Shown here in pieces: positions 3,080 through 62,433 of a stretch of 64,000 nt of DNA; the stretch's first letter is position 1, and every line of letters begins with the position of its first letter. This DNA is from a virus. Where the stretch lies: IMG/VR virus record IMGVR_UViG_3300025000_000061, positions 1 to 64,000 of that record. One strand, written 5' to 3'. The notes beneath the pieces are model-generated. The model made no database searches. It was not told the origin of the DNA and saw nothing but the letters and a program-made list of their open reading frames with translations. The position numbers and the translations under genes were made by a program.

Positions 3080-3472
3080 ATGTTAATTAATATGCTCATT
3101 CCATTAAATAAAATAAAAGACACTTCAAATGATTTCTATCAACCATTAACTCAATGGGAATGCATTATAAAAGGTATTTATGCTGGTGTTAATGGTTTTT
3201 ATCATTGTAAAATAGTTAGATATTATAGTGTTTGTAGTATTGATGATATGGAATACGCTATGATTGATTTTATTGTAGAAGTTAATTTTGGAGAAACTGA
3301 GGAAATATCTAAAAATGTTATATTATCACAAAGTATAACTTGTTCTGCACATAGGATAGGTGGTACTAATATGGATATTAGGAAAAGACATGATAATCTT
3401 GAATCTGCAAAAAGATTTGCTAAATCATTAATCAATGAGAAGCAAGGAAGAATGAAATGGATTAAAACATAA
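3080..3472 (+). CDS. hypothetical protein
   Basis: 130-aa ORF (start may be 3092). Confidence 0.7.
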   Translation: MLINMLIPLNKIKDTSNDFYQPLTQWECIIKGIYAGVNGFYHCKIVRYYSVCSIDDMEYAMIDFIVEVNFGETEEISKNVILSQSITCSAHRIGGTNMDIRKRHDNLESAKRFAKSLINEKQGRMKWIKT

Positions 3473-3530
3473 TAAAAGATTGATTTGGTCATGACATACG
3501 ATTCAATAAACCCTTTGTTTATAAGGGTTT
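3472..3530 (-). repeat. Composite site (reverse orientation): core ATAAA-N8-TTGGT-CATGAC plus 23-bp palindrome AAACCCTT-N7-AAGGGTTT
   Basis: Core 3472-3489, palindrome 3508-3530, 18-bp gap as in six other copies. Confidence 0.8.
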
Positions 3531-3557
3531 TTGTTTTATATAATTTAAATATTTATA

Positions 3558-3606
3558 AGAATACTAAAATAAATATGTTGACATTGTATTTCTTATATGT
3601 TATCAT
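3558..3606 (+). promoter_or_regulatory. sigmaA promoter with upstream AGAATACTAAAATAA motif
   Basis: Motif 3558-3572; TTGACA 3578-3583, 17 bp, TGn-TATCAT 3601-3606. Confidence 0.8.
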
Positions 3607-3642
3607 TAATTAATTAATTAATCCAATCGAGGAGGAATACAT

Positions 3643-4119
3643 ATGATTACACAAGAACAATTTAATAAACTCGAAATGGAATATGGTTGTGGATACTGGA
3701 ATATATGTTGGGAACATGCTTGCCCTTGTGCTATTACTATTGAGAATAAAGGATTAACAAAAGAAATATATGATAGTTTAGTAGAAGAAGCAAGAGAAAT
3801 TGTTGAGATGGATGAGCAACAAAACGATGATTACTATGAAGAATACGGAGAAGAAAATAGTTTAGAAGATATTTTCTATGAAGATTATGAACAAGATTGG
3901 TTTGAGGAAGAAGATTTATTAATAAATTTTACTGAGAAGCAATTACCATTATATGAAAAAGCTGTTCAGGAATTTGGTGACGATACACTTTTTATTAGTG
4001 ATGAAACATATCATAGCAATGGATTTAGACTTGAAGGATATTATTCATTAAGAACAAAAGAGCATAAAGATAGACATGAATTTTGGAATTTATTTGATTC
4101 AATAAGAAAATCATTTTAA
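3643..4119 (+). CDS. acidic hypothetical protein
   Basis: 158-aa ORF, SD GGAGG. Confidence 0.8.
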   Translation: MITQEQFNKLEMEYGCGYWNICWEHACPCAITIENKGLTKEIYDSLVEEAREIVEMDEQQNDDYYEEYGEENSLEDIFYEDYEQDWFEEEDLLINFTEKQLPLYEKAVQEFGDDTLFISDETYHSNGFRLEGYYSLRTKEHKDRHEFWNLFDSIRKSF

Positions 4120-4370
4120 GATATAAAAAGGAGAAAAATACAATGAAAACTATTAAACAACAAAATAAATTCGATGAACAATTATTCAGAAGATACAAAA
4201 AGGCATTAGAAGGTTTAACCGTTGGTGGTTCTGAATATTATAATAATCCTAAAAGATGTGCTGAGTATGTAAGGAGTAGGTTAGATGGTCACGTTAAAAC
4301 AATAAAAAGGTTAATTAAAGAAAGAAATGATAGTAGGAATAAGAATAAATAAAATAAAGGAGAGATACAT

Positions 4371-4913
4371 ATGTTAGTAGATATTAATTTTAAGCAAAGT
4401 TTAATTGACGAATACAGAAAAAAGATTGAAGAACATTGTACACCTGAAAAATTTGAAGAAATCAAAAATCATATACCTAAAAATCTTAATGATATATTTC
4501 ATAGAATAGACACAGGTATATATTATACTGGGTTAAATTTTAATCACAGAATTAAATTACTCTCAACTAATAAAATTAAAGATAAATTTGAAAGTTTTAC
4601 TTTTATGAAACGAGTAAATGGAGAAGTGGATTGGGAATACATCCGTAAGTGTATTAAAGAAGGTAAGGAGCATAAAGACAATTATGGTGTATGTGACAAT
4701 TATCAACAAGTATTAGATCGTTATCCAGAATTAAATGATGTTAATAGGAAATTTGTGTTGTCCTTATGTAAGATCAGTAAAAAAGAAAATAGTGGTTGGA
4801 GATGGCATAAATGGGGAAAGTATATAGGCGTTCAAAATTCTCAATGTGAGTATATTGATGATGAATCTGAGATTGAAGAAGTTTATGTTTATCATATTTA
4901 TGAAATGGAATAG
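4371..4913 (+). CDS. hypothetical phage protein (GWRWHKWGxYIG motif)
   Basis: 180-aa ORF, SD AAAGGAG, motif I recognise from phage proteins. Confidence 0.8.
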   Translation: MLVDINFKQSLIDEYRKKIEEHCTPEKFEEIKNHIPKNLNDIFHRIDTGIYYTGLNFNHRIKLLSTNKIKDKFESFTFMKRVNGEVDWEYIRKCIKEGKEHKDNYGVCDNYQQVLDRYPELNDVNRKFVLSLCKISKKENSGWRWHKWGKYIGVQNSQCEYIDDESEIEEVYVYHIYEME

Positions 4914-5439
4914 GAGGAATTACATAATGTTTGCAACAGACCAACAAGGATGGGATACTTTTGATATGGCAGGTGTATTATCAAATATACCTGATAGTAT
5001 GAAATATATATTTGCAGAAATAATTCGTAGTACTATGACAAGTAGAGAATTAAATCAAGAAATTAAGGATATATTGATTTATGCTTGTTATCATAGTACG
5101 TTATCTTTTGATGATAAAGAAGTGTTAAGTTGGTAATAAGGAGTTAAAAATATGAAAAAATATTTTAAAATTAATGATAAACATACTATCATTATCGAAG
5201 ATACTTGTTCAAATAATTATTATTATGCTGTTATAGCAAAAACTATATTTACTATAAATATACCTTTTACTAATGGGTGCTATACATTATTTAGTAAGAT
5301 AAAATATTATGATATGCCATATTATCATGGTATGGATTTTAAAGAGGAATGTAATAAAATATATGAAATGTATATTAAGGAATTACAAGATAAGAAGGAT
5401 AAATATGAATTGTTAAAGAATTTATAAAGGAGATAAATT

Positions 5440-5874
5440 ATGCAATTAAAATATGGTGGAGAGCGTAAAGTATTTATATTTGATAAAATAGTAATCAAAA
5501 TTCCTTATACATGAAAAGGATGGTTGTCAAATGTTAATGAAATTTATAATTGGCATACATACAAAGAATTAAGATATATTATGTGTCCTATATTGTTTCA
5601 TGATCTATTAGGAATATTTATAGTAATGCGAAAGGCAAATCAAGATAATTTAAAAGAATATGAAAATTATTTAAACACAATAATGAATAAACACAAAGTA
5701 ATATATGATAATACAGAGTATCCACATCCTGTATTGAATGATAAACACCATTCTAATTTAGGTGTATATGAGGGTAAATTAGTTAAAATAGATTACGGAA
5801 ATTGGTATTGGTTATATAATATATATGTAGATATTAAAAACAAATTAAATAATATAAGGAGGAAAATAATATGA
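5440..5874 (+). pseudogene. ORF interrupted by in-frame TGA (5512-5514); weakly kinase-like (VIKIP...KIDYG)
   Basis: SD and ATG at 5440 are in frame with ORF 5524..5874; single TGA in KIPYT*KGW. Confidence 0.6.
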
Positions 5875-7043: not shown

Positions 7044-7409
7044 ATGAAAAAGTCAGATTTAAAAAATGGAATGATAGTAAAAACAAATGGTGACGATTAC
7101 GGAGTAGTTATAATTAAAGATTCTACAAATGAGAATTGTATAAAATTTTTATATTGTCCTAGATATTTAGTAGATAACGGTTGTTTGTTGAATAGTAATT
7201 TTGGTATAGTACATCCATTAGATGAATTAGATGATAATTTAAACTTTTATCATATTGTTACTGAGAATGATTTAGAACATTTTATAGATTCTAAAGTAGG
7301 AGATAAAATAATATTAGGACAAATAATTGAAGTGTTTGACTTAAATAGAATATGGATAAGAAATAATTTACAACCAACTCCTAGCGGGTTAATGGGAGAT
7401 TGTGAATAA
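7044..7409 (+). CDS. hypothetical protein
   Basis: 121-aa ORF with SD. Confidence 0.75.
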   Translation: MKKSDLKNGMIVKTNGDDYGVVIIKDSTNENCIKFLYCPRYLVDNGCLLNSNFGIVHPLDELDDNLNFYHIVTENDLEHFIDSKVGDKIILGQIIEVFDLNRIWIRNNLQPTPSGLMGDCE

Positions 7410-7423
7410 AGGAGGAAAAATTT

Positions 7424-7726: not shown

Positions 7727-7750
7727 ATAATTCAAAATCTATGATCCTAC

Positions 7751-7809
7751 AAACCATTGATTTTATTGGGTTTGTAGACTTGTAAATTATGACAAAAGAG
7801 ACATTTTAT
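7751..7809 (+). repeat. Composite site: 23-bp palindrome plus ACAAA-N8-TTTAT core
   Basis: AAACCATT-GATTTTA-TTGGGTTT 7751-7773; core 7792-7809. Confidence 0.85.
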
Positions 7810-7832
7810 TCAAACTTTAAGGAGGAAATATA

Positions 7833-8276
7833 ATGAGAGATAAAATAAGATTGAATGCCAGTTTTCCATTATTTACTGATGAATTTATGAAAAAATTTTT
7901 ATTAGATGTTAAAAATACTATTGACAATGAAGATATATTGTATGAACATTCTACTAATAATACTAATATATTTGTTTATAAATTAGATGAAGCAGAAGTA
8001 TGTATTAGCAACATGCATTTTTGTTTAGAATTTAATCCAGAGAATATTAACATAAGAAAATTTATTGATACGTTAAGGTGTGAATATAATAAATTAAAAA
8101 TTATTTATGAACACTTGGATACATTGTATAAATTTACTATCTACACACCTTATGCCTACAATGATGAAATCAAAAATCAATTAATTGAATTAGGAATTAT
8201 ATTTGAGGAAAATAAATCATGTAGGGATAATACAATGTATTTTACGGTTCATAGTCAAGTAAAGTTTTATAATTAA
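7833..8276 (+). CDS. hypothetical protein, paralog of 34419..34859
   Basis: Shared MRDKIR...FMK.FLL..KN.ID.EDIL.EH sequence. Confidence 0.8.
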   Translation: MRDKIRLNASFPLFTDEFMKKFLLDVKNTIDNEDILYEHSTNNTNIFVYKLDEAEVCISNMHFCLEFNPENINIRKFIDTLRCEYNKLKIIYEHLDTLYKFTIYTPYAYNDEIKNQLIELGIIFEENKSCRDNTMYFTVHSQVKFYN

Positions 8277-11386: not shown

Positions 11387-11402
11387 TAAAGGAGAGAATA
11401 AT

Positions 11403-23982: not shown

Positions 23983-24041
23983 AAAGTATTGATATATAAA
24001 GGTTTTAAAAAGTGTAAATCATTACAAAAGAATGGTTTTAT
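23983..24041 (+). repeat. Composite site: 23-bp palindrome plus core
   Basis: AAAGTATT-GATATAT-AAAGGTTT 23983-24005; ACAAA-AGAATGGT-TTTAT 24024-24041. Confidence 0.8.
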
Positions 24042-24757
24042 GATGAAATTAAAAAGGAGTGTATTATGAGTAAGCATTATGAATTTATACATAAAAAAGT
24101 AATAGATATTTGTAATTGTATTTTTGGTAATATAAAAACAAAAACAGATGCAAAAGAAACTATATTACTAATGATTGCTACATCTTGTAAATTATATGAA
24201 AGTGACAATAACTTCAGAAATAAAATTAATGAAACTGAAAGATATATAAAATTAAAAATGAAATTGGAAAAATTATAATAATAAAAAGGAGAATATAAAA
24301 ATGTTTACTTGTTATAATGAAGATACTCATAATTGTGACGGTAGATGTCAAGGTGCATCAGATTGTCCTTTAGCACATGATATAAATATAAGTAAAAGAG
24401 TAATGAAATTATATATTAAACAAGCAATCGAACGGAAGAAAGAATGGGATAAATTTACTGAAGAATTACATCAAGATGAAGAATTTATAAAAGAAATTAA
24501 AAGTATTTTAGATAAATTTAATTATGGAAGGAGAGCAAATAAATAATGAATAAAATTGATCGTTTAATTTATGAATCAGAAAAAGGTCAATCAATCCATA
24601 ATTTTGCAGAAGAACTTTGTGAAGAATATAAATTAAACAACATAGAATTTTATGGTATATTCAATGATATTAAATTAGTAGTAAATCAATATGAAAATCC
24701 TATGTCTTTGTATTGGCAGTATATGTATAAAAGAGAATTAGAAAGGAGTAGATAATT

Positions 24758-26036: not shown

Positions 26037-26095
26037 AAACCCTTATAATATAAGGGTTTATAAAACACAAAATCATGACAAAAGTGTAATTTTAT
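26037..26095 (+). repeat. Composite site: 23-bp palindrome plus core
   Basis: AAACCCTT-ATAATAT-AAGGGTTT 26037-26059; AAATCATG-ACAAA-AGTGTAAT-TTTAT (core 26078-26095). Confidence 0.9.
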
Positions 26096-26301
26096 GCAAA
26101 GTTGAAAAAGGAGATTAAAATATATGAGATATTTAATTTGGTATTTTAAAAGTTGTTTCTGTAAACATGAATGGATATACGAAGAAAGAAAATGGACGGG
26201 TTCTAGTCTTTTAGGACAACAATCTAGTGGAGTAACTGTTTCTGCAACATGTAGTCAATGTGGATGGCATAGAAAATATGAAAAGTTTTAATAAATAATT
26301 C

Positions 26302-36850: not shown

Positions 36851-36898
36851 TATCTATATATTGTGTGTATATGGTTGTTAGACTACAATATATAGTAT
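36851..36898. promoter_or_regulatory. tandem NrdR-box-like motifs
   Basis: TATCTATATATTGTGT 36851-36866 and CTACAATATATAGTAT 36883-36898 match acaCwAtATaTwGtgt; 32-bp period. Confidence 0.65.
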
Positions 36899-36900
36899 AA

Positions 36901-36926
36901 AAATCATGATAAAAGACAGATTTGGA
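36901..36926. repeat. core site AAATCATG-ATAAA-N8-TTGGA
   Basis: Full left 13-bp arm of the repeated site. Confidence 0.75.
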
Positions 36927-39724: not shown

Positions 39725-39873
39725 ATAAATTGGGAATAGATTATAAATATAAATTATAATATATATTATCATATATTATAAAAGGGTGTGATGTCTTTGA
39801 TTGTGTAAAAATAAATTAAAAAGTTATTGTGTTTAAATTGTATCTATTAAAAAATAATATAAAAGGAGGATAT

Positions 39874-41412
39874 ATGTTAGTAAAAAATCAAAAAGTTAAA
39901 ATGAATTGGAGTGGAAGTAATAGAAAACATTATGAATTAAAAGGATATCCTTTTACTAATTATAATGATGAATTTGAAGTTAAAATAGAGGATTTAGCAC
40001 CAAAAAGTCAAAAATATGTTTTGATTAGATGTGATTATTGTGGGATACCTTTTTTGAGAAGGTATGTAAATCATAATACAAGAAAAGAGAAATATGGTAT
40101 AAATGATAAAGATTGTTGTGATGATTGTAGAGCATATAAAAGAGAAGAAACATGTTTAGATAAATATGGTGTTAAAAACGCTGCTCAGACAGAAGAAATA
40201 CAAAATAAAATAAAAAGAACAATTAAAGAAAAATATGGAGTAGAATATATTTCTCAATCAGAAGAAATTAAAAACAAAAAGAAACAAACTTGTTTAGATA
40301 AATATGGAGTAGAATATACCTTACAAGTGCCAGAAATTAGAGAAATAATTACAGAAACTAATATAAATAAATATAGATGTGAAAATCCATTTCAAGCAGA
40401 AGAAATTAAAGAAAAAATAAGACAAGTCAATATGGATAAATATGGAGTTGAATATGCTTCCCAATCTTTAGAAGTGAAAGAAAAAACCAAACAAACTAAT
40501 TTAATAAAATATGGGAAAGAATACTACTTACAAACAGATGAATACAAAGAAAAGATTAAACAAAATAACCTAGACAAATACGGAGTAGAATATTATTCAC
40601 AAACAGAAGAATATAAAAACAAATATAAGCAAACCTGTCAAAATAAATATGGTGTTGATAATGTTTCACAAGTTCCAGAAATTGCAGAAAAAATTTCACA
40701 ATCACGTACAAAAGAATTTAAAGATTTGACAAATATAAAATTTAACCATTTAACAGTAATTTCTTTAGTACCTGATAAAACAAATAAGCACCATGATAGG
40801 TATTGGCTATGCGAATGTGATTGTGAAAATAAAACTAGAAAGGAAATTTCAGAAAATCATTTAGTTAGAGGAAATATTAAAAGTTGTGGGTGTATACGAA
40901 AAGAATCATTAATTGAAAGATGGGAAGGTAAAACAAAAAAGGATATATATCCTTATTACAAAGAAATATATTGTACATATGATAGTATGAGAAAAAGATG
41001 TTATAATGAAAAACATGATAATTATAAAAGATATGGTGGTAGAGGAATAATTATTTGTGATGAATGGTTGAATGATTTTATGAATTTTTATAATTGGGCA
41101 ATAAAAAACGATTATAAAGAAGGATTAACTATTGAAAGAATTGATTATGATGGCAATTATGAACCTGATAACTGTAAATGGGCAACATGGGAAGAACAAA
41201 GTTATAATAAATCAAATACGTTATACATAGAAGTAGACAATGAAATGAAAACAGTTAAACAATGGTCTGATGAAACAGGGATACCTCAACATATAATATA
41301 TCAAAGATATGCCAGATATAAAAGAAAAGATAAAAAAGAATTAGAGTTATTAACTAAAGAAAAATTCTTTAAACCAGTTAGACAACTCAAAAGAAAGGGT
41401 GATGTTGTCTGA
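39874..41412 (+). CDS. homing endonuclease-like protein: Zn ribbon, KYG repeats, HNH-type C-terminus
   Basis: About 8 repeats of T.L.KYGVEY..Q.EE.K.K; YWLCECDC, KSCGC, MRKRC, YGGRGI, TIERID..GNYEPDNCKWAT..EQ..N; start moved to 39874 behind AGGAGG. Confidence 0.85.
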   Translation: MLVKNQKVKMNWSGSNRKHYELKGYPFTNYNDEFEVKIEDLAPKSQKYVLIRCDYCGIPFLRRYVNHNTRKEKYGINDKDCCDDCRAYKREETCLDKYGVKNAAQTEEIQNKIKRTIKEKYGVEYISQSEEIKNKKKQTCLDKYGVEYTLQVPEIREIITETNINKYRCENPFQAEEIKEKIRQVNMDKYGVEYASQSLEVKEKTKQTNLIKYGKEYYLQTDEYKEKIKQNNLDKYGVEYYSQTEEYKNKYKQTCQNKYGVDNVSQVPEIAEKISQSRTKEFKDLTNIKFNHLTVISLVPDKTNKHHDRYWLCECDCENKTRKEISENHLVRGNIKSCGCIRKESLIERWEGKTKKDIYPYYKEIYCTYDSMRKRCYNEKHDNYKRYGGRGIIICDEWLNDFMNFYNWAIKNDYKEGLTIERIDYDGNYEPDNCKWATWEEQSYNKSNTLYIEVDNEMKTVKQWSDETGIPQHIIYQRYARYKRKDKKELELLTKEKFFKPVRQLKRKGDVV

Positions 41413-42008
41413 TTGAATTTATTATAGGAGCAATTTTATATGCAAAATATAAAAAGAAATATAAATTAAAATACATATTTAAATACCCATACATATTTGC
41501 AATAATACCACCTTTATTATGTGCCTTACTATACATATTTATAGAAATATCAGTTTGGAATCAATGGTATTGGTTTTTACCATATCAACATATAATAAAA
41601 ACTACAACTTTGTTAAGTTATATACCTTTACTTTATATATATAATCTTTATGAAAATGATAATCAAAAATACATAAATAATAATATAATGAATGTAGTTA
41701 CTTCACCTATGTTTAAAGCAGGATTCTGCTTATGGTTAGGTTCGACATTAAATAAAATAGTTATAAATGCTAACAATGGTATGCCAGTTTTCCCTAGTAA
41801 TACATACTGGACTGGTTACGCCAAACCAGATTTATTTAATGATGGTATACATATATTAGGTAATGCTTATACAAAATTAATTCCTTTGTCAGACTGGATT
41901 GATATTTTTTACTCGGTGATTTCCCCAGGAGATATTTTAATTCGTATGTATGTTTTTTTAATTATATATTATGCTATAAAATATTCTAATAAATTATTAA
42001 TAAAATAA
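41409..42008 (+). CDS. DUF5317-family membrane protein (likely CTG start)
   Basis: Frame open from 41403; LIEFIIGAILYAK..., LN..VI.ANNGMPV, H.L, L.D.I, SPGD motifs; SD AAAGGGTG. Confidence 0.8.
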   Translation: MIEFIIGAILYAKYKKKYKLKYIFKYPYIFAIIPPLLCALLYIFIEISVWNQWYWFLPYQHIIKTTTLLSYIPLLYIYNLYENDNQKYINNNIMNVVTSPMFKAGFCLWLGSTLNKIVINANNGMPVFPSNTYWTGYAKPDLFNDGIHILGNAYTKLIPLSDWIDIFYSVISPGDILIRMYVFLIIYYAIKYSNKLLIK

Positions 42009-42048
42009 TAAAATAAATGTTGACACTTAAACAACTCTATGGTAATAT
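42002..42048 (+). promoter_or_regulatory. sigmaA promoter for sensor-agrD with upstream motif variant
   Basis: AAAATAATAAAATAA 42002-42016; TTGACA 42020-17-TGnTAATAT. Confidence 0.7.
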
Positions 42049-42080
42049 ATAAATAGAAAATTACTAAGGGAGTTGGTTAT

Positions 42081-42881
42081 GTGGAACAAAATATTATAAA
42101 TGCGATATTGAATTTTTTCACAATTAGTTTGTTCGAGGAGTTAGGTATAGTTTTACTAATTTTAATATTTTTAAAAAGATTTGATTTACTTGATAAATAT
42201 ATGTGGAGATGGAATATAAAATGGATAATTTTGCCTACAATTTTAACGTCATTCTCCATAAATATATTTATATACATAATACCAAATTTTATATTAAAAT
42301 TTTTTGTTTCTATTATTGTTTTATACTTTTCTATAAATTATATCTTAATTAAAACAGACCCATTAGATGAAAAAATAAAATGGTATAAAATATTAATCAG
42401 TATAATATTAAGCATAGTTATGATAACAAGTGCAGAAATAATATATTTACCAATAATGCTTCAATATGTTAATCAACCAATAGAAATATTGAATAATAAT
42501 ATGTTATTAAAATTTATAGTAAGTTTGCCAGCAAAAACATTTCAAGTGTTATTGATTTATTTCATGTATAAAAAACATAATCAAAGTGAAAAATATGTTT
42601 CTAATATTTTAAAAGATAGAATATTATCTTTAGTTACAATTAGTTTTACTGGTTTAATATTGTTTGCTTTAACATGTATAGTAAAAATTGTAATTAGTTC
42701 AGAAATGATTGGTAAATATTCAATACAAACTCAAATGATGATTAGTGTATTAATAACAATTGTACCAACAATACTAATATTTCTTTATATCATACCAATT
42801 AATTACCTATTATCACGATTATTCAGAATACAACAGAGTTATCAACAAATGTATGATGATGTTGATGATACTGATGTATAG
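42081..42881 (+). CDS. multi-pass membrane protein resembling an AgrC sensor domain, lacking the kinase domain
   Basis: About 7 hydrophobic segments, immediately upstream of agrD, no H/N/G boxes. Confidence 0.6.
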   Translation: MEQNIINAILNFFTISLFEELGIVLLILIFLKRFDLLDKYMWRWNIKWIILPTILTSFSINIFIYIIPNFILKFFVSIIVLYFSINYILIKTDPLDEKIKWYKILISIILSIVMITSAEIIYLPIMLQYVNQPIEILNNNMLLKFIVSLPAKTFQVLLIYFMYKKHNQSEKYVSNILKDRILSLVTISFTGLILFALTCIVKIVISSEMIGKYSIQTQMMISVLITIVPTILIFLYIIPINYLLSRLFRIQQSYQQMYDDVDDTDV

Positions 42882-42913
42882 ATACAATGAATTGAAAGGA
42901 GGTGAAATTTATT

Positions 42914-43039
42914 ATGAAAAAATATACTCTTTTAGTCGTAGCTGGTTTTATTGCTTTAGTTGCTACTGCACTTACTAATTCCGTAGCATCTTTCATGGGA
43001 TTGAATCAACCTAAGAGTCCTTCTATGTTAGTAAAGTAA
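42914..43039 (+). CDS. agrD: cyclic lactone autoinducer peptide precursor (41 aa)
   Basis: MKKYTLLVVAGFIALVATALTNSVASFMGLNQPKSPSMLVK; SD AAAGGAGGTG; leader, S-X4 ring, xQPKxP tail. Confidence 0.9.
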   Translation: MKKYTLLVVAGFIALVATALTNSVASFMGLNQPKSPSMLVK

Positions 43040-43055
43040 TATGACTACATAGAAA

Positions 43056-43093
43056 ATTCTAAAGTAGAGTGTTTACTTCCTCTACTTTAGAAT
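43056..43093. terminator. 14-bp perfect stem-loop after agrD
   Basis: ATTCTAAAGTAGAG-N10-CTCTACTTTAGAAT. Confidence 0.75.
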
Positions 43094-43179
43094 AAAAAAA
43101 TAATATAAAAACTATTGTGTTCTATATTAATATATGGTAACATATAGACAAGAATATAATAAATAAGGAGTGGTAAAAA

Positions 43180-44055
43180 ATGATGTTATTTAATAAAAAA
43201 GAAATTCTTAAAAAAGATAATCTTGTGGATGATAAATTTAAAAAAGAGATGGCATTTTTAGTATTTAAAGCAAAAGGTAGACGAAATATTGAACAATTCG
43301 TAAAAGACATGAAAATGTTTGATCCTACACCAATCGTTAATTTAATAAATAAAAATTATAATGAATTACCTGATAGAAAATTATTAAGGAAAATAGCCGA
43401 TAATAGTATGGGAATGGTTAATTTTAGGATATTATATGATCTCTGTGGTTACTCCGAGAGAGATCCTGAAGAAGATCGTAGTTGGATAAAATGGGTTCCA
43501 AGATGGGCAGAAGTTTATATGTGTGATCTAGGCATAGGAGAGGATTGTATTCAAGGAGGGAAAAGAAATGTATTAATAATTCAAAATAATAAAGGCAACC
43601 AACACTCACCGAATGTATCTATATTGCCAATATCCAGTAAATGTAAATTTAACCATATGCATATACTATTAGAAAAAGAATTGGGTTTTGAAAGGGATAG
43701 TTACGCATTGTCAGAAATGCCATTAACTGTAAGTAAGAGGAGGTTCTTTTATAATACAGTACCTTATAAAATTACAACACTTTCAGATTTTAAAATGAAA
43801 GAAATACAGGTATGTCTTGAGAAACAATTTGGATTTTTACCACTTTATTTTGACGTAGAACATGCATTTGAACTAGTCAGACATATAAAAAATCTAGAAC
43901 AAAATATAAAAATCAAAAAATCACATAATTTAGTAGATATTATGGAAGATAAATTAAATGACCTAAAAGAATACTGTTCAAAATACAAAAAGAATTATCA
44001 ACATTACCTACAAGAATACGATAGAATCAATAACTATGGTATTCAAGCAATATAG
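43180..44055 (+). CDS. extended MazF/PemK protein with N-terminal Xre-HTH-like region and C-terminal helical extension
   Basis: KAKGRRNIEQF..P..KLLRKIA..LYDLCGY, then PRWAEVYMCDLG..IQGGKRNVLIIQNNKGNQHSPNVSILPISS. Confidence 0.8.
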   Translation: MMLFNKKEILKKDNLVDDKFKKEMAFLVFKAKGRRNIEQFVKDMKMFDPTPIVNLINKNYNELPDRKLLRKIADNSMGMVNFRILYDLCGYSERDPEEDRSWIKWVPRWAEVYMCDLGIGEDCIQGGKRNVLIIQNNKGNQHSPNVSILPISSKCKFNHMHILLEKELGFERDSYALSEMPLTVSKRRFFYNTVPYKITTLSDFKMKEIQVCLEKQFGFLPLYFDVEHAFELVRHIKNLEQNIKIKKSHNLVDIMEDKLNDLKEYCSKYKKNYQHYLQEYDRINNYGIQAI

Positions 44056-44126
44056 TGTAAATACTATATTTCTTCTATAAAATATTAATAATAAACAAAA
44101 AACAAATAAAAGGAGATGTTCAACAA

Positions 44127-44600
44127 ATGATTAACGAACACAAATTAAAGTATCTATGCAACAAATATGGTATTAATTATCAAGTATTTCATGCAACAGA
44201 TACCATATTAATAGATGCAAAATTAGATATATGGGAGGTGAAATATTATGAAGAAATACAAAAAAAATTAAATTTATTATACAATAAACAAAAAGAAATT
44301 CAATTGCAATTATTATCTCCTGTATTAGATGAACCAATTAAGAAAAAATTATTATATGAATATGAAAAAATAAACAAAAAAATAAAAGAAACAAAACCAT
44401 ATTATTTACTTCATAAAAATAAATCTGATAATAAATTTAGCAATCAGCACACACAAGGATGGAAGAAAAATTTATATCAAGTAATAACTTTTATATTAGC
44501 ACATAAAAGAGTTTTATATGGCATCCAATTAGGAAAGCCATATATACATAAGCACAATATTAAAATAAATAAGAAGGGAAAAGTATGTTTAAATACATAA
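44127..44600 (+). CDS. hypothetical protein overlapping the agrB start
   Basis: 157-aa ORF with SD. Confidence 0.7.
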   Translation: MINEHKLKYLCNKYGINYQVFHATDTILIDAKLDIWEVKYYEEIQKKLNLLYNKQKEIQLQLLSPVLDEPIKKKLLYEYEKINKKIKETKPYYLLHKNKSDNKFSNQHTQGWKKNLYQVITFILAHKRVLYGIQLGKPYIHKHNIKINKKGKVCLNT

Positions 44601-45271
44601 GATACCTATTAACATTCCGATATATCAAACTAATATCCTATATATCTGCTAAATATCTTCATAATAAAATACCTGTATTCCCACTAATAGATTCAAAAGT
44701 TTTATTAAAATTTTTACCAAAAAATATGTTAGATTTATTTGAAAATTTACATCAACAATCTAAATTAAAACCATATAAACTTAAATATGTTTATTACTAC
44801 GGTTGTCAAATCATCATAGGAGGCATTAACAAATTCCTACTCTTAATCACACTAGGCATCCTACTCAACATCCTCCCATATCTCATACTAACAACAATAT
44901 CATTCGTATCATTGCGAATTTGGTCTGGAGGGTTACATTTTGACTCTTACTCTAAGTGTGCCTACATTTCACTCTTATCATTTACAATCATGGCACTATT
45001 AGCAAAATACATCTACATATCAACCATACCTACTATATTAATATTCTTAATTGTCTTAATTTTAATTCTATTATATGCACCAGTAGAGCATCCCAACAGA
45101 CCAATAAAAAATAACGAAAAAGTTAAATTTAAATTAATTTCAATTTTCTCATTGTTAATATTACTATTAGTTATTTTATGCGTAAATAATATTATTATCT
45201 GTAATTCTATAGTGTTTGGAGTGCTATTAGCAGGTATAATTATGTTGCCTATTATAAACAAACTGAAATAG
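44585..45271 (+). CDS. agrB: AgrB-family autoinducer-processing peptidase
   Basis: YG.QII, LR..SGGLH....C (catalytic His/Cys), YAPVEHPNRPI, several TM segments. Confidence 0.93.
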   Translation: MFKYIRYLLTFRYIKLISYISAKYLHNKIPVFPLIDSKVLLKFLPKNMLDLFENLHQQSKLKPYKLKYVYYYGCQIIIGGINKFLLLITLGILLNILPYLILTTISFVSLRIWSGGLHFDSYSKCAYISLLSFTIMALLAKYIYISTIPTILIFLIVLILILLYAPVEHPNRPIKNNEKVKFKLISIFSLLILLLVILCVNNIIICNSIVFGVLLAGIIMLPIINKLK

Positions 45272-45809: not shown

Positions 45810-47183
45810 ATGCTTAGTATAAAAAATGCTATGTTAATAGGAGAGTTAAAACCACTAATATTAAAGTATGGCAACAATTCAAAAATCTATAACATTATAC
45901 AAGAGGAATTTATTAAAAAAGGGTTATCTGGTAGCAATGCAAAAAACTTACTAACAGGTAAAATTGCTTTAGAAACATTAGATATTACCAATCAAAAAGA
46001 ATTATTCTTATTATTTTCTTTTACAGATGCTATGAAGAAAGCACTAAGTACATTTGATGAAATGTCCAAGGACACTTTTGGCATGGAAGAGGAATATATT
46101 AAATTAAAATTAGAATATTATTTTACACCCATAGAGATTGAAGAATTTACAGAATTCGTTATAGAGAAAGAAGAAGTAAGAAAATATCCGTATAGATTAA
46201 GAAATATGTTAAAAGTAGGAGAAAATCATTATATAGGGATTATAACTTCTAAAGAATTAGCCGAAATAGATTCTACTAATGATATAGTATATGACTTTGC
46301 AACACAAAGAGATCCTAAAATTGATATATTTGGAATGAGACGTATTAATGTTGACACAAGAAAAATTGATGCAATTGAAAAAAGTTTACTTGCTGGTGAA
46401 TATTTTTCAGATGAAATCAAGTTGAATGTTAAGAATGATGGAGAAGATCATATCGAATTCGATTCAAAGGACGGAATTTATGGTGATCTTATTATTCATT
46501 CAGGAACAATAACTTGTTTTGATGGCTATCACAGAAAAACTGCCAATTCTAAAGCGCAAAATAAAAATAATGAATTGCAATTTAACTGGAAGTTAGGTGT
46601 CACCAATTATCCAGAACCTAAAGCAAGAAAATTTATGACACAGATTAATAAACAAAAACCTATTAAACGTGAATACGTTAAAAATATTGATGAAACAAAA
46701 AATGAAAATACAATTGTCAATAATATTATTAATAATTCTAATTCTGAATTTGCCGATAAAATTAAAGAATCTGATGCAGAATTAAAATTTAGTGGTTTAA
46801 CTAAAAAATCTATATTATCTCTAGCAATAGAAGAACAATATGAAGAATTTTTAAACACTAAAATTTATAATATTGAAATCTCTAATTGGATAGTAGACTT
46901 TACAAATTATTTAATGGGACTATATCCTAATGAATTTTTATTTAATGTAGACAAAACTAAAAAAGTAAGTTATATTAATAATAGAAATATGTTCATAGGT
47001 TATATTGCACTTTCAAGAAAGTTATATAAGCAAGATGATTGGAAGAGTAAGACCGTTAAAATAATGAACAGTATTGATTTTAGCATTGAAAATAGCATAT
47101 GGAAGAATATTCGTATTGATGATAATATTTTAAATAAAACATCAAGAAAAGAATTATATAATCTATTTATAAAGGAGGTGTAA
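45810..47183 (+). CDS. DGxHR (DndB/ParB-like) domain protein, SPbeta YopQ-like
   Basis: Y...TQR, I.LN, FDGYHR, F.QINKQKP motifs; 457 aa; precedes an integrase-like gene. Confidence 0.7.
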   Translation: MLSIKNAMLIGELKPLILKYGNNSKIYNIIQEEFIKKGLSGSNAKNLLTGKIALETLDITNQKELFLLFSFTDAMKKALSTFDEMSKDTFGMEEEYIKLKLEYYFTPIEIEEFTEFVIEKEEVRKYPYRLRNMLKVGENHYIGIITSKELAEIDSTNDIVYDFATQRDPKIDIFGMRRINVDTRKIDAIEKSLLAGEYFSDEIKLNVKNDGEDHIEFDSKDGIYGDLIIHSGTITCFDGYHRKTANSKAQNKNNELQFNWKLGVTNYPEPKARKFMTQINKQKPIKREYVKNIDETKNENTIVNNIINNSNSEFADKIKESDAELKFSGLTKKSILSLAIEEQYEEFLNTKIYNIEISNWIVDFTNYLMGLYPNEFLFNVDKTKKVSYINNRNMFIGYIALSRKLYKQDDWKSKTVKIMNSIDFSIENSIWKNIRIDDNILNKTSRKELYNLFIKEV

Positions 47184-47186: not shown

Positions 47187-48251
47187 ATGGTAAAGCATAA
47201 AAATGGTAAGATTAACTTAGCAGAGAGAGTATTTAAACATGATAGAGATGTTAAAGAAGAATTTTTAAAAGATATTAAACCATCAACTGCAAAAACTATA
47301 AGAAGCATACTTTTTAAAGTAGATGATTATGAAGATCGAATCGGTAAAAGTATATATGATTTTACCTTTGAAGAGCGTGATGATTTCTTTATTTCTCAGT
47401 TTTGTAATAAAAGTAAGGGCGTTATTAATACAACAAGATCATATTTAGTAAAGTATATTAACCATTGTATTGATAACAACCTTGTTAGACATATGGAGAA
47501 TAGGTTTGATTTAATTTCTAAAGATGATATTGATAAATATATTAATGATACTGCAATGCAAATGAAATATCTATCTAGAGAAGAAATTAAAGAAGCACAG
47601 GATAAATTAGTTAATAATTGTGATAAGTTAATTTTGCAATTAATACCTTTGTCTGTCAGAGGGCGTACAGAATTGAATAATACTAATGAAGAATTAATTA
47701 ATTTGAGAGTAAAAGATGCTGAAGAATCTTATGAAACAGGTATTTTGCATGTCTGGAATAATGACGGTGATAGAAGACCTGTGAAAATTGATGAAGAAAC
47801 AATAGAATTATTGAAAAAGACAATAAATGATGATAGTTATATTATTAATAACGGAAGCATTTATGATAAAAAAGGGAGAATACTTGGCAGGGGTATCGGA
47901 GAAAAATGTTTTCCTTTAAATGATACTGGTTATGTATTTAGAACTGCTGGTAAGAATAAAAAAGGAAAAGTTAAAACTAATTTTTTTGGTTCTAGGATGA
48001 GAATAATGAAAACCTGGACGATGAATCCATTTATCACCGTAACGAATTTGTATTATTCTGGAATTATCGATTATGCTATGCAATTAAGAAAAGAAAAAGG
48101 TACAGAATTAGATAATCATGATTATATTAAAATAATTGATAAGTTTTCTTATGGTAAACCACAAATACTATCAAACAAAGAATTAGATTGGAGTGTACCA
48201 ATATCAAAAGTAAAATCTATGGTGGAAGATTATATTAATAGAAAATTATAA
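47187..48251 (+). CDS. tyrosine-recombinase-fold protein without catalytic HxxR, MrpR/YopR-like lytic-cycle repressor
   Basis: KEEFL..., E....K.IYDF, YLSREE, DKLIL..VRG..EELINLRV.D; TNLYYSG in place of HxLRHS. Confidence 0.75.
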   Translation: MVKHKNGKINLAERVFKHDRDVKEEFLKDIKPSTAKTIRSILFKVDDYEDRIGKSIYDFTFEERDDFFISQFCNKSKGVINTTRSYLVKYINHCIDNNLVRHMENRFDLISKDDIDKYINDTAMQMKYLSREEIKEAQDKLVNNCDKLILQLIPLSVRGRTELNNTNEELINLRVKDAEESYETGILHVWNNDGDRRPVKIDEETIELLKKTINDDSYIINNGSIYDKKGRILGRGIGEKCFPLNDTGYVFRTAGKNKKGKVKTNFFGSRMRIMKTWTMNPFITVTNLYYSGIIDYAMQLRKEKGTELDNHDYIKIIDKFSYGKPQILSNKELDWSVPISKVKSMVEDYINRKL

Positions 48252-52271: not shown

Positions 52272-52846
52272 AGGAGAATAAAATATGAAAAAAGTAATAA
52301 TAAAATCATGTACTAGATGTCCATATTCTGATTTTAGTATACCTGATGAAGATGAGATGGGAAGTTATATTTGTTATAAAGTAAAAAGAGAACAGTATGA
52401 TTATGAATCTGATTATGATAACAAAGAAGGTAAATTTATTATCACTTTAAAAGGTATTAGTGATCTTGAATATTCTAAAATGCTAGATAGTTATATTCCT
52501 GATTGGTGTCCATTAGAAGATAATTAAAAATTATAAAAAGGAGATAATTTAATTATGAATGTAAGAGAATTAAAGAAATTATTAGAAAATATGAAGATGA
52601 CGTAGAAATTATTACATCATCAAGTAATTATGAGTTAAGTGGTGGTAGAGTTAAAGCAAGAATTATAGAAACAAAATGTTCTATAATAAGAGAAAGATTT
52701 AGAGATGATTTTGATGGAACAATGTATAGTAAAGAAATTTATAAAAGTGATCAAAATGGTAAAACAATGTTATTGGTAGTAGGGTAAAGGAAATAAATGC
52801 CCAAAAAATGTGAATTTTAACAATCTATGAAAAATAGACATGCCAC

Positions 52847-52905
52847 AAACCATTGATATTACTGGGTTTGTAAAACTCAATATCATGACAAAATACTCGT
52901 TTTGT
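52847..52905 (+). repeat. Composite site: 23-bp palindrome plus core
   Basis: AAACCATT-GATATTA-CTGGGTTT 52847-52869; ATATCATG-ACAAA-ATACTCGT-TTTGT (core 52888-52905). Confidence 0.85.
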
Positions 52906-53143
52906 GTTAAATGGAAAGAGGTGAAAATATGACTTGTAAATATTGTGATAAACCTCATATATTTGAATCCGAATATACAGGTGACAAAGTATGTCTTGAA
53001 CATTTGTGCAATATATGTTATTGTAATGATTGCCATAGAAGATTAACTGATTGTCCATGCGGAGGTTGTAATCGTTGTAATGATGATCCACTTGAAATTC
53101 AAGATGGTTGTAGTTGGAGATAATTAATAAGGAGTAAAATATA

Positions 53144-54207: not shown

Positions 54208-54266
54208 AAAGTATTGATTTATAAGGGTTTGTAGCATGTAAAATTGCGACAAAACCATCATTTTAT
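54208..54266 (+). repeat. Composite site: 23-bp palindrome plus core
   Basis: AAAGTATT-GATTTAT-AAGGGTTT 54208-54230; ACAAA-ACCATCAT-TTTAT 54249-54266. Confidence 0.85.
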
Positions 54267-54700
54267 GAGGAAAGGAAAAAATTATGATAGATAAATTTTT
54301 ATTAACTGGTCAAGATAAATTAATATTTACTGAAATACCACAAAAACCGGATGAATTTACTAATAGTAATTTTGTAAAGATGATTATTCCTATTAAGTAT
54401 ATTGATTATGAAACTGGTGTATTTAAATTAAAAGAATTTATTGATAGTATTAATAATGAAGTAATTCAATTTGAATATAATCCTAAAAATTAAAAACAAA
54501 ATTTAAAAGGAGGTTTTATCATATGCCTAATAAATTATATGAAGAATTAAAAATATATGTATTTGTCAGAGATTATCTTAGACAATATAATGCAATGTGT
54601 ATAAACGGTATTAATGATTGTATTGAATGTGGTTTATGTTGGATGAATCCAAAAGAGATAACTGAAGTAGAAAAATGTTTATAAAAATTAAAATAAATGC

Positions 54701-54729
54701 TTGACATTAGAATAGAATACTAATATAAT
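54701..54729 (+). promoter_or_regulatory. sigmaA promoter containing AGAATACTAATATAA motif
   Basis: TTGACA-17-TATAAT; motif 54714-54728. Confidence 0.85.
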
Positions 54730-56388
54730 AATAACCACAAATAAAAATAAAAGGAGGACACCTACTATGACAGAAATTACACTAAACAGTGAAGTATACG
54801 TTAAGAAAGATGAGATTGAAATTGATTATGAAATGGCAGTTAATATTTTAAAAATCTAGAAGAACACAAATTTATTCAATTAGTTGATGAAATTGTATTA
54901 GAAATGCTTAAAGGAAAATATGATGATTTAGAAAGTTTAATGGAAGGACATTGTAATACAAATAGAACATTACTTAAAATTCACTATGCTACGCATGACT
55001 ATTAAAAATAAATAAAAAGAAAGGATGTGTACTCTATTGGCTTTTGATTATCTTAAAATGACTATGCAAGGATTAAGCAATATTCTTTATAATACTACTC
55101 AAAGTAATTCAGTACATAACTCTAAAGATGAGATTCTTAATAGTATTAAAAGAATGATTTTAGATTACAATAATAAAGTAGATAACAAAAATAAAGTTAA
55201 TTGTGTTGATTTTAGGAAAGGAATAAATTAATATAATGAAAGTTTTTAGAGTATATAGAAAAGATATTAATGAATTGCCTGGATGGTGGAATGAAGTAGG
55301 GTATAGAGAAGTAATTTGTGTTGCAGAAAATGCTAATCAGGCAAAAGGAATTGCTCTAGCAAAACACAGAAGTTTAATGGATGATATAGCTAAAAGGGAT
55401 ATTTTAGTTGAAGAAATAACATTAGAAATAGGAATGATATTGGGAGCAGATTAAATAATAAATATAATATATTAGGAGGAATAATAATATGTGGTATCGT
55501 ATGAGTGGTAATGGAAATATAATTTGTAAAGAATGTAATATGGTGTTTAGTATAATGATTCAACATGATTATTTTTGTCCAAGATGTCAGAATGGTATGG
55601 AAGAAGTAAAAGAAGTTATAAGAAAAGCAGAAAATAAAAATAAATAAAAATAACTAGGAGATAAATTTTATGAATGATTATCATGTAATAACATTTATTA
55701 CTGGAATTGTTGTTGGTGCATCTTTAATGATATATAAACTAAATAAAATAGAAAAGGCTTATTGGACTTGGAAAAATGGTTATGAGCAATTAGAATGTAA
55801 ACTTAAACATTATGAAGAAGTTTTTAGATTAATGGGTAAAGAGGTTGAATAAATTATTGATAATGAAAGGAATTAATATTATTATGGAAAATAAAGAAGA
55901 AATAATATTTGATGTAACAATTATGCATAAAGGTGATGTAATCAGTTATTTTACACACGATAACGGAAGATACTTTATTGAACAAGGTGAAGTCAGAAGC
56001 GAAAATCCATATAAAGATGGTGTAGAAGTTTATGGAGATGGTTGGAGACAGTATGTAGGTAAATGGTTTATTAATAAAGTAGTGCGAAATGGTGAAGTTA
56101 TATTTAAAAAATAATAATGAAATGAAATGAAATTTCATTTCATTTGATCATGATTAAGAAAGGAGAAATAAATTGCTAACTAAAAAGAGTTATATATTGT
56201 TAAAACCTATTGATATAATAGAAACTGTTAATAAATATCATTATAATGAAATTACTATTGAAGTTAATGTATTTTATTTATTTTGGTTTATACCTATTTA
56301 TAAAACACAAAAAACAACTCATATTAATAAATTTAAAAATTCATATGTAAAACCAAAAATAAGAAAGTTAAAATAAAAGGAGTTTCTA

Positions 56389-59208: not shown

Positions 59209-59248
59209 GTTTAAGAAGTTATTATATATTTTAAATAACTTCTTAAAC
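59209..59248. terminator. 15-bp inverted repeat
   Basis: GTTTAAGAAGTTATT-N10-AATAACTTCTTAAAC. Confidence 0.55.
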
Positions 59249-59816
59249 CAAAATAAATTATTATAAAGGAGAAAATTATTATATGAATAATCAAACAGAA
59301 AATTATATCATTCTTAAACCTATTGCTGAAAGATTTAATAAAGTTGCTAAAGAAATATCAGACGAAGATATTAAATATATTATTAAAGAAGCAATGCGAG
59401 AACAAATTAAAGGTGTATTTGATTTTAGTAAATTAGAAGAATTGACTTACGAGTATATTGATAAAAATGAAGAAGATATTAAACAAATGATTGCAGATTC
59501 AATTATTGATAGACTTAGATATAGGTAAAAATATTTGTTACAATATATTTTTTTTATTCAAACTTAAAATTAAAGGAGGAAAATAAATATGAATATATTA
59601 CATCAAAAAATACCAATTAATAGCAATGGTGAATACTTATTAAAATTAAGAGAAGTATCAAGAATGCATGATTCTATTAAAGATGTTTTACCTGAAGATT
59701 ATATATTAATAACTTCACCAACCGATATTGCTAAAATTGATGGAAATTATAGAGAAAGCGGAAATATATGATGGACTGTGTAAATGATAAAAAATTAAAA
59801 AAGGTGGAATATAAAA

Positions 59817-61070
59817 GTGGGTGCTACAGCACTAAGCGTTAAAGATTTTGTAATTGATATTTCTGAAGCAAAAGAAAAAACAAAACAAAAAAAGATTCAA
59901 CAAAAACAAAAAGCAAAAACTACATATAATGTGATTCTACAAAATAATATTGATTTTGTAATACACAAGAAAACTACAACTACAGATAAGAATTTAGTAT
60001 TTTTAATTAGTCAAAATCAATTTTATATTCAAGATAATAAAACTAAAGATATTGATACTCTATCCAAAGAAAAATTACGTGGATTTTTTCAATCAATATA
60101 TTGGGATAAATTTGAGAAACTAGATAGGGTCGTTTGGTGGCAAGGAAGTCCTGAAAAAATGATAGAGAAAATGATTGAAATAGTTAGCAATACAGATATG
60201 CAAAAAATGTACCAACATGGAATTTGCGTTGATAGGTATAAAATAGATTCTTGGAAAGAGTCATTTAACAATAATGTTAAGTTATTTAAATATTGCTATG
60301 ATAAATGTCAAGAATCAAGAACAAACAGAAGTTATTTTGATCATATATTAAAACTTGCAACTACTATTGAAAAAGAAATAAATTTTAATAATGCAAGATT
60401 ATTTATTGATAAATTTTGCGAATCTAATGTAAAAATGTTTTTAGAAGAAGGATATAAATATAATGCTAATATTAAACCAAATCATGAAATGTTCTTAAAT
60501 TTAATTAATACATATTCATTAGATTTTAGTAGATTTATTGATTATATTTCTATTGATTTATATTCTCAAGGAATTAGTCAATTTGATAAAAATATATTAA
60601 CTGAATATAATGATTATTTACAAATGCAAGTTAAATTGTATGATAAGGTTAAAGAAAAATATCCTAAATATTTAAGAACTGAACATGATATTGTTGCTTT
60701 AAAGGTAACTTTATATGAAAAACATAAACAGGAATTGATGTTACTTGACATAGTAGACAATTTTAAACATTTAGAGTATAAAGATAGAGAATTTTGTATT
60801 GTATTACCTGAATCAAGTATGAATATAGTTGACGAAGGGGTTAATTTGTCGCATTGTGTCGCAGATTATATTGACAAGGTAGCAAATAATGAAAAATTAA
60901 TTGTATTTTTAAGAACAGTAGATGAACCAGATAAATCATTGGTTACAGTAGAAATAAAAGATAATTCTATTGTTCAAGCAAAAGGATATGCAAATAGATT
61001 AATTAATAAGGAAGAAGAAAAGTTTTTAAAGAAATGGGCAAAAGCAAAAGAATTACATTATAGTATTTAA
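59817..61070 (+). CDS. PcfJ-like domain protein
   Basis: Y.DYL.M...YPKYL..EHD, P.S..I..EG..L.HCV..Y, FLR...PDKSLVTVE, Q..G..N. Confidence 0.85.
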   Translation: MGATALSVKDFVIDISEAKEKTKQKKIQQKQKAKTTYNVILQNNIDFVIHKKTTTTDKNLVFLISQNQFYIQDNKTKDIDTLSKEKLRGFFQSIYWDKFEKLDRVVWWQGSPEKMIEKMIEIVSNTDMQKMYQHGICVDRYKIDSWKESFNNNVKLFKYCYDKCQESRTNRSYFDHILKLATTIEKEINFNNARLFIDKFCESNVKMFLEEGYKYNANIKPNHEMFLNLINTYSLDFSRFIDYISIDLYSQGISQFDKNILTEYNDYLQMQVKLYDKVKEKYPKYLRTEHDIVALKVTLYEKHKQELMLLDIVDNFKHLEYKDREFCIVLPESSMNIVDEGVNLSHCVADYIDKVANNEKLIVFLRTVDEPDKSLVTVEIKDNSIVQAKGYANRLINKEEEKFLKKWAKAKELHYSI

Positions 61071-61110
61071 TGAAATAATAAAATAAAAATATAAAAAGGA
61101 GAATGATATT

Positions 61111-62343
61111 ATGAAAATTGAAGTAGGAATGAAATGTAAACAAATTAAGGCAATTGAAAAGTATGGTTTTGATTGTATTGGTATGGAATTTGAAATCACA
61201 AAAATAGATGACAATGTGATTATGTGTATGGGTAATGGAATTGGTTTTGGCATTGATCCTAATGAGTTTGAGAATTATTTTGAAATAGTTAAAGAGAAAG
61301 TTAAGGAAAAAGGGAAAGAAGATTGCATTATGAACACAAACTACAAAGGCAAAAAAATTAGAATTATCAACACAGAAGGATTCATTAGAGATGATTACAA
61401 AGATTTGGATAAATATATTGGTCAAACAGGAATCGTTAGATGGGATTTTGAAGGTAGTGAACATAGATTATCTATAAAATTTGATAATGAAGTATTAGAT
61501 AGTATAAATGAAAGTAATGGTAGATTATGTTTTAGAGTTGATAGTGTAAAGTTTATTGATGATACTTGTGAAAGAAATATTGATAAAGATAATAAAAATA
61601 AAACTTTAGATATTAATGATATTAAAATTGGTCAAAAATATAGAGTAATTAAGAACAGAGATACTCGTTATGGTTCATGTAGAGATTTAATAGAAATCGA
61701 AAGTCAAGAAGTTGAAATTATGGGGTTGAATGTAGGAGTTAATGGAGATATAAGGATTAAATCAAAAAATAATATACATATTTGTAGAGTTGAAAATCTT
61801 GATAAAATTAATAGTTACGCAAAATTAGGTGATATTGTAGAATTATCAAATGGTTTAAAAATGAAGATATGTGAAGATGAAAATATTAATGGATATTATA
61901 AAACGGTAGATATCTTTACTAATAAAAATATAACAACATATATATCAGAGAATAAATTAAAAGAATATTATTTAGGTAATAAAGTTTGGGGATATGATGC
62001 ATACAAATATGAAATAATTAATATTAAAACTGAGGAAATTAAAAAAGAAACAAAATCTGTAAAAACAAATAAAGTTTATTTCTATAAGATGATACCACAT
62101 AAAATTAATTGGGAAATAACACATGATGATGAAATAATAAATCAAACAACTGATTCAGGTGATGAATCATATAAACTAATAATCAATGGATTAACTACTA
62201 TTGTTATTCTTGATGACGGATGTAAGGGTGTAGCAAAGTGTTTGCCTAGTGATGAATATGATATGGATAAAGGAGTAGATATAGCTTACACGAAAGCATT
62301 AATTAAATCTTATCAGAAAAAATTAAAGAGATTGGTAAAATAG
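61111..62343 (+). CDS. multidomain hypothetical phage protein
   Basis: 410 aa; repeated small beta-barrel-like units and C-terminal TIVILDDG.KGVAKC.P.D.YD..KG. Confidence 0.7.
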   Translation: MKIEVGMKCKQIKAIEKYGFDCIGMEFEITKIDDNVIMCMGNGIGFGIDPNEFENYFEIVKEKVKEKGKEDCIMNTNYKGKKIRIINTEGFIRDDYKDLDKYIGQTGIVRWDFEGSEHRLSIKFDNEVLDSINESNGRLCFRVDSVKFIDDTCERNIDKDNKNKTLDINDIKIGQKYRVIKNRDTRYGSCRDLIEIESQEVEIMGLNVGVNGDIRIKSKNNIHICRVENLDKINSYAKLGDIVELSNGLKMKICEDENINGYYKTVDIFTNKNITTYISENKLKEYYLGNKVWGYDAYKYEIINIKTEEIKKETKSVKTNKVYFYKMIPHKINWEITHDDEIINQTTDSGDESYKLIINGLTTIVILDDGCKGVAKCLPSDEYDMDKGVDIAYTKALIKSYQKKLKRLVK

Positions 62344-62368
62344 TTTAATTCAAAAATATTGATTTTAG

Positions 62369-62433
62369 AAACTGTTGATTTATAATGGTTTCTAAACTTC
62401 AATATTTGCACAAAAGAGAATTTTTATCGTGAT
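62369..62433 (+). repeat. Composite site: 23-bp palindrome plus core
   Basis: AAACTGTT-GATTTAT-AATGGTTT 62369-62391; ACAAA-AGAGAATT-TTTAT-CGTGAT (core 62410-62427). Confidence 0.85.

Follow-up and report, generated by a model that had tools for sequence, protein, structure and literature searches.

Two palindromic sites in fixed register at gene junctions of an uncultured SPbeta-like phage: a putative promoter-operator cassette

Box, dyad and the distance between them

The DNA analysed here, the window, comprises positions 1–64,000 of the 151,782-bp IMG/VR record IMGVR_UViG_3300025000_000061 (the whole record is referred to as G000), which has a guanine-plus-cytosine (GC) content of 24% and carries nearly all of its genes on the + strand. 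Its genes include homologues of yopQ/sroE and mrpR/sroF, which are adjacent and in the gene order of phage SPbeta, and between gene ends and the next ribosome-binding sites lies a repeated cassette in which a 23-bp palindrome (the box) and a 28-bp dyad form one length-invariant unit of about 64 bp (Table 1). On sequence grounds, this 64-bp cassette is most likely a gene on/off switch and not a DNA-recombination site, the latter role having been proposed in an original prediction made from the letters of the window.

That prediction described seven boxes, each 18 bp from an 18-bp core (ACAAAA-N6-TTTTrT). We searched for boxes as AAACCCTT-N7-AAGGGTTT with up to three mismatches and obtained seven matches where 0.36 were expected. 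Six of these are the boxes at 3508, 7751, 26037, 52847, 54208 and 62369, while the seventh, at 24016, is the neighbouring core and not a box; the true box there (23983) has four mismatches, yet reaches 24–26 bits by weight matrix and aligns column for column with the other boxes. The box has an 8-7-8 layout with the extended consensus ACAAACCCTT-gatttat-AAGGGTTTGT, and 12 copies, nearly all intergenic, were found across the 151.8-kb record.

The 18-bp core proved to be the inner part of a 28-bp dyad of 11-6-11 geometry, TCATGAyAAAA-N6-TTTTrTCATGA. A scan with an iterated, symmetrised matrix (threshold at least 14 bits; dinucleotide shuffles as control) detected 37 copies in the record versus 0.8 in the shuffles, with about 16 of them within the window. 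These dyads lie at about 37 gene junctions between the stop codon and the next Shine-Dalgarno sequence, and nearly all are intergenic. Many begin no more than a few nt from the upstream stop codon, and the dyads end 12–30 nt before the next start, as do most of the lone dyads of the window; at most junctions the dyad ends 0–18 nt ahead of the Shine-Dalgarno. Dyads that stand alone also tend to have AAAAT directly 5' of them.

Related contigs were gathered through searches with protein homologues, followed by retrieval of the contigs encoding them; a related-locus search with the MrpR-like protein alone returned no relatives. The set comprises G001, G002, L019, L024 and L113, with an MrpR-like protein 68–75% identical in the last three, and a more distant clade (L022 and L112; 41 kb covered) in which this protein is about 50% identical. 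The dyad was found in every relative examined, including L022 and L112. The box was confined to the clade in which the MrpR-like protein shares at least 68% identity with that of G000, and none was detected in the 41 kb of L022 and L112, where dyads are present.

Aligning the sites confirmed the predicted arrangement: each of the seven window boxes is separated from a dyad by exactly 13 nt, equivalent to 18 nt from the 18-bp core, with six cores 3' of their boxes on the + strand and the 3472 core on the other side of its box, inverted. The inverted core is weak (10 bits), but no more than 30 of the roughly 303,000 positions of the genome reach such a score, so its presence at the exact offset is not due to chance. 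Across the whole genome the spacing is not universal: a dyad is found near all 12 boxes and the 13-nt gap in 10 of them, the other two gaps being 41 and 23 nt. Eight further boxes at 13 nt were detected in the five related contigs, such that the gap is kept in 18 copies over six contigs with no insertion or deletion in any; two orthologues of the 41-nt site also keep their 41 nt. Pairwise identity among the 18 copies is 0.68 in the box, 0.68–0.70 in the dyad arms, 0.49 in the gap and 0.37–0.41 in the flanks. Since the 13 nt are kept without insertions or deletions while the sequence of the gap drifts, the length of the gap is under selection and not merely inherited. The earlier claim that the spacing is unlikely to have arisen by chance is borne out, the arrangement being highly non-random. 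The invariant spacing in these 18 copies supports that part of the prediction which saw in the box a second protein site in register with the core; the recombination role attached to it is not supported (see below).

Some dyads and boxes have additional sequence features beside them. Paired NrdR-box-like palindromes (ACTACAATATATAGTA type), which end in TATAGT about 7 nt 5' of the dyad, abut some dyads (window 36860–36903; G000 64690–64727, 66645–66686, 81760–81792, 83180–83223, 88150–88187 and 89975–90019). In the 41-nt variant, an additional 8-7-8 palindrome, TTATACTT-AAAATAA-AAGTATAA, lies within the extra DNA (G000 88297–88337), and dyads flank the box on both sides (88188 and 88338); this region is conserved in G001 and G002. 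The 23-nt sequence ATTTTATTCAAACTTTAAGGAGG, which spans a dyad right arm, leader and Shine-Dalgarno, is identical between window positions 7803–7825 and the yosX leader of SPbeta (129307–129329), and is the longest exact match between G000 and SPbeta, the next longest being 19 nt. The yosX product was considered as a homologue of the product of gene 7833–8276 and rejected, as the proteins are unrelated despite the common 23-nt leader.

Table 1. Cassettes, dyads without a box and candidate regulatory genes of the window, with dyads of two laboratory phages.
Feature	Position	Strand	Details
Inverted composite	3467..3530	-	Dyad 3467–3494, overlapping the stop of gene 3080–3472; 13-nt gap; perfect box 3508–3530
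Composite	7751..7814	+	Box 7751–7773, 13 nt, dyad 7787–7814; Shine-Dalgarno and start of gene 7833–8276 18 nt on
Composite, divergent intergenic region	23983..24046	+	Box 23983–24005 (left arm degenerate, no fold), dyad 24019–24046; gene start 24066; TTGACA-17-TATAAA across box
Composite	26037..26100	+	Perfect box 26037–26059, dyad 26073–26100; gene start 26124
Composite	52847..52910	+	Box 52847–52869, dyad 52883–52910; gene start 52929
Composite	54208..54271	+	Box 54208–54230 (no fold), dyad 54244–54271; gene start 54284; TTGAAA-17-TATAAG across box
Composite	62369..62432	+	Box 62369–62391, dyad 62405–62432; gene 62461–62736 next; TTGATT-16-TATAAT across box
Lone dyad without box (example)	706..733		Dyad matrix
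Further lone dyads, window	Starts 6110, 12290, 14039, 29599, 34371, 36904, 37841, 63606		Dyad matrix
YopQ/SroE-like protein	45810..47183	+	BLASTP E 3e-25; directly 5' of the MrpR-like gene; second candidate binder
MrpR/YopR/SroF-like integrase-fold repressor homologue	47187..48251	+	PF22822 match; BLASTP E 3e-19 to YopR; candidate binder of one site type
SPbeta NC_001884 dyads	24122, 39880, 44411, 57142, 73663, 95123, 113658, 118464, 118861, 120070, 132741		Dyad search
phi3T KY030782 dyads	1727, 14372, 33900, 46631, 83276		Dyad search

Lysogeny genes and candidate binding proteins

Replication genes of the record have their nearest counterparts in SPbeta-type Bacillus phages and Geobacillus virus E3, with the RecJ/YorK homologue 36–41% identical to the counterparts in these phages, and a megablast search of the lysogeny module against GenBank phages gave no match. 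Judged by its sequence, this large uncultured phage is SPbeta-like and temperate. In SPbeta, MrpR is a repressor without recombinase activity, its recombinase function having been lost, and binds dispersed sites termed SPBRE at about ten promoter regions (PMC10516654). Lysogeny of the SPbeta type combines such a recombinase-fold repressor with a second repressor, SroE; SroF, which is without the catalytic tyrosine, reads a box of 24–26 bp as a monomer, and the phi3T box is 26 bp long and unlike SPBRE (bioRxiv 10.1101/2025.11.27.690993). The only solved structures that match the protein of 47187–48251 are those of MrpR/YopR (8A0A, 8BJ6 and 8BJV), and PF22823 accompanies the PF22822 match in a precomputed table.

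We found that the region 5' of these two genes (window 39829–45271), where arbitrium genes would be, encodes AgrB, MazF/PemK-like proteins, DUF5317 and DUF7487, a layout kept in all relatives fetched (L019, L022, L024 and L113). Pfam searches of the genes 3' of the cassettes detected no families. A phage SpoIIID-like protein was considered as a binder of the dyad and rejected, there being no PF12116 match in G000 and none annotated in about 40 kb from the more distant clade.

Promoter signals and rival explanations

Sigma-A-like hexamers overlap the box in several copies (TTGACA-17-TATAAA, TTGAAA-17-TATAAG, TTGATT-16-TATAAT and TAGACA-16-TATTAC), and two layouts are possible. In layout (a) the -35 hexamer lies just 5' of the box and the -10 within it; in layout (b) a conserved TTGAt in the box and a CAAwAT whose last base is the first of the dyad stand 19 nt apart, and both TTGAt (box columns 7–11) and CAAwAT are conserved columns of the 18-copy alignment. 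We read the cassette, with confidence about evenly balanced, as a promoter-operator unit of this SPbeta-like phage in which two putative, distinct protein sites are held in fixed register. Such a unit would control early or accessory genes: the box, overlapping the hexamers, would be the counterpart of SPBRE and thus the operator of the integrase-fold master repressor, while the dyad, which would coincide with the transcription start or closely follow it, would serve as a second operator read by a conserved factor, either the YopQ/SroE-like protein or one supplied by the host. With the gap fixed, both proteins, once bound, would share a single register with RNA polymerase, resulting in cooperative repression. 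We infer this assignment of proteins to sites. A fuller version, in which an SroF/MrpR-like protein reads the box, a conserved factor (most attractively a YopQ/SroE-like co-repressor) reads the dyad, and the dyad represents an overlooked operator class of the whole SPbeta group, is offered tentatively and may be considered rather unlikely as a whole.

Canonical strong promoters that lack a dyad are also present. They share an upstream box, TTATAAGAtAtwAAAATAAt, followed by TTGACA-17-TATAAT (window 3554–3615 and 54680–54735; G000 119426–119480; L022 151, 2151, 5315, 14209 and 19331), and this promoter type is conserved between G000 and the distant relative L022.

Several observations weigh against the promoter-operator reading. 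Layout (a) accounts for only about 7 of the 18 copies, and layout (b) has an unusual 19-nt spacer. Sigma-70-type hexamers are no commoner than in shuffles of 24% GC sequence, and scans for consensus promoters and terminators, with matches at chance level, are uninformative in such AT-rich DNA. Of the 10 composites of G000 with a 13-nt gap, two (107156 and 128727) have the asymmetric TTGAT reversed with respect to the dyad, and three more (3508, 26037 and 111231) lack it. Neither box nor dyad resembles SPBRE or the phi3T box in sequence beyond a common ACAAA, SPBRE in SPbeta stands without a paired dyad, unlike the box with its dyad at 13 nt, and the composite is without direct precedent; the absence of the box from the more distant clade covers 41 kb only. 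Folding is possible for five of the seven boxes of the window (-6.5 to -14.3 kcal/mol) but not for those at 23983 and 54208, and it tends to be better where a co-directional open reading frame ends within 60 nt (p 0.05), so that some boxes may act additionally as hairpins or insulators.

The box could instead be the -35/UP part of a sigma-A promoter, with a -10 abutting the dyad and no binder of its own, leaving the dyad alone as operator and the spacing to be fixed by the geometry of RNA polymerase. This we regard as unlikely: the conserved TTGAt and CAAwAT, the indel-free gap that a fixed -35/-10 distance would explain, and the AAAAT before lone dyads all agree with it, but the spacer it implies differs from the 17 nt of the canonical promoters of the phage and its relatives, the dyad symmetry conserved in the two box arms would be superfluous in a promoter, and neither the flipped or missing TTGAT nor the two boxes at 41 and 23 nt fits. 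The folding of five boxes, with several stems reaching into flanks of differing sequence, and the weak trend towards better folding near gene ends would suit a hairpin serving as insulator of the preceding gene, whether by weak termination or by stabilizing the 3' end, ahead of an operator-controlled restart. A U-tract follows only the 3508 box, where the T-run on the + strand probably also terminates gene 3080–3472, and is lacking from the other six, two boxes do not fold, and the exact distance to the dyad would be left without a reason. When the right arms were permuted among copies, the dyad showed no excess of complementary arm pairs (z 0.9, 50 sequences) and the box with its flanks no compensatory covariation (p 0.75, 17 sequences); the stable stem-loop, U-tract and compensatory changes of an intrinsic terminator do not characterize the box family, in line with the original prediction that the boxes are not simple terminators, and a hairpin role is in our view quite unlikely. 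Because the arms do not covary and only one box has a U-tract, both elements look like dyad-symmetric protein sites on DNA and not like hairpins or terminators. It is very unlikely that the cassette works at the level of the mRNA, where it would form a leader element for a translational regulator or an RNase that cuts just 5' of the ribosome-binding site. The closeness of most dyads to the Shine-Dalgarno and the 23-nt identity of the right arm, leader and Shine-Dalgarno at the 7787 dyad to the yosX leader would be expected of such an element, but the dyad symmetry is without covariation, U-G and C-A combinations are equally frequent at the variable dyad pairs, against an RNA stem, and the dyads of SPbeta stand beside genes of either strand, as a DNA site would.

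We consider it extremely improbable that the dyads serve as crossover sites of the Xer/dif type, with the box binding an accessory factor that gives recombination its direction, and this interpretation, central to the original prediction, is not supported. It draws on the dif geometry of the dyad (two arms of about 11 bp around a centre of 6–8 bp), on an integrase-fold protein encoded nearby, and on the element at 52827–52940 (containing the 52847 composite), which is an isolated 114-bp match in the relative G001 while both flanks differ. The record, however, yielded no match to the tyrosine recombinase family PF00589 (Phage_integrase), to which all 14 control genomes respond, and its sole integrase-fold protein is the MrpR/YopR/SroF homologue, from a family without recombinase function and catalytic tyrosine. 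Tyrosine recombinases cannot exchange strands between sites whose central regions differ. The 6-bp centres of the dyads have a pairwise identity of 0.30, no higher than the background in the flanks (0.37–0.41), and share no crossover region; because they are unrelated, the dyads would be unable to exchange with one another. If the 37 sites, which form a single orientation-free array, did recombine, the genome would be deleted. Breakpoints in homology to relatives are no more frequent at the elements (3 of 13) than at other gene ends (45 of 130). A scan of bacterial chromosomes, which had been suggested as a check, found GGGTTT-N13-TCATGACAAAA only as 81 single chance matches among 185,579 bacterial species genomes, none of which pointed to a related prophage or to the host, and a composite-pattern scan of IMG/VR gave two true relatives and four chance matches. 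The sites instead follow stop codons and precede the next ribosome-binding site, in the manner of the SPBRE operators of SPbeta. Dif-like geometry beside an integrase-fold gene thus need not mean recombination.

Comparison with known systems

Xer sites (dif, cer and psi) resemble the cassette in the 11-6-11 geometry of the dyad and in a second site at a set distance on one side. The cassette differs in that the record holds no competent recombinase, all dyad centres differ, and 37 copies stand at gene junctions; furthermore, the accessory sequences of dif/cer/psi-type sites are about 180 bp long and bind ArgR/PepA or ArcA, whereas the second element here is 23 bp at 13 nt. The promoter-early stem-loop (PeSL) cassettes of T4-type phages, associated with Arbiol et al. 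2010, were reportedly proposed to mediate cassette shuffling. They are similar in being repeated units of about 60–90 bp, with a promoter-like part and a palindrome, before small accessory genes of a large phage, but the elements described here show no enrichment of breakpoints with relatives, and the palindromes are without structural covariation.

SPBRE and the SroF operators are closer counterparts, belonging to the same phage lineage with a homologous repressor gene that adjoins a yopQ/sroE homologue. The SPBRE consensus that we derived from the SPbeta record is acaaATACAAAwAATATGTATAtaa. Its copies commonly occupy the spacer of a TAGACA-17-TATAAT promoter or lie against the ribosome-binding site, and they are found as far as about 80 nt ahead of start codons. 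Like these operators, box and dyad are dispersed multi-copy motifs in promoter or leader regions (12 and 37 copies), and the box further shares with SPBRE its copy number (12 motif matches of SPBRE), short arms flanking an AT-rich centre of 7 bp, and an overlap in several copies with TAGACA/TTGACA and TATAAT-like hexamers.

The dyad also has relatives in these phages. SPbeta contains 12 dyad-like sites versus 0.2 expected, with the consensus TCTAGATAAAA-N6-TTTTATCTAGA, whose outer bases differ from those of the G000 dyad. None stands beside SPBRE; those checked against the annotation are intergenic, several of them between a stop codon and the next start. In phi3T, five dyads were detected, versus none in a reversed-pattern control, although its SroF box differs. 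We know of no description of this 28-bp dyad family in SPbeta or phi3T. With the box limited to one clade and the dyad present in all relatives as well as in SPbeta and phi3T, the pattern fits a box that changes with the specificity of the repressor and a dyad that is read by a conserved factor. The copies in SPbeta and phi3T allow the dyad family to be checked directly in those laboratory phages, and the coupling of two types of site at an unchanging distance, in a remote relative from outside Bacillus, offers a testable model for how two such repressors could cooperate on DNA.

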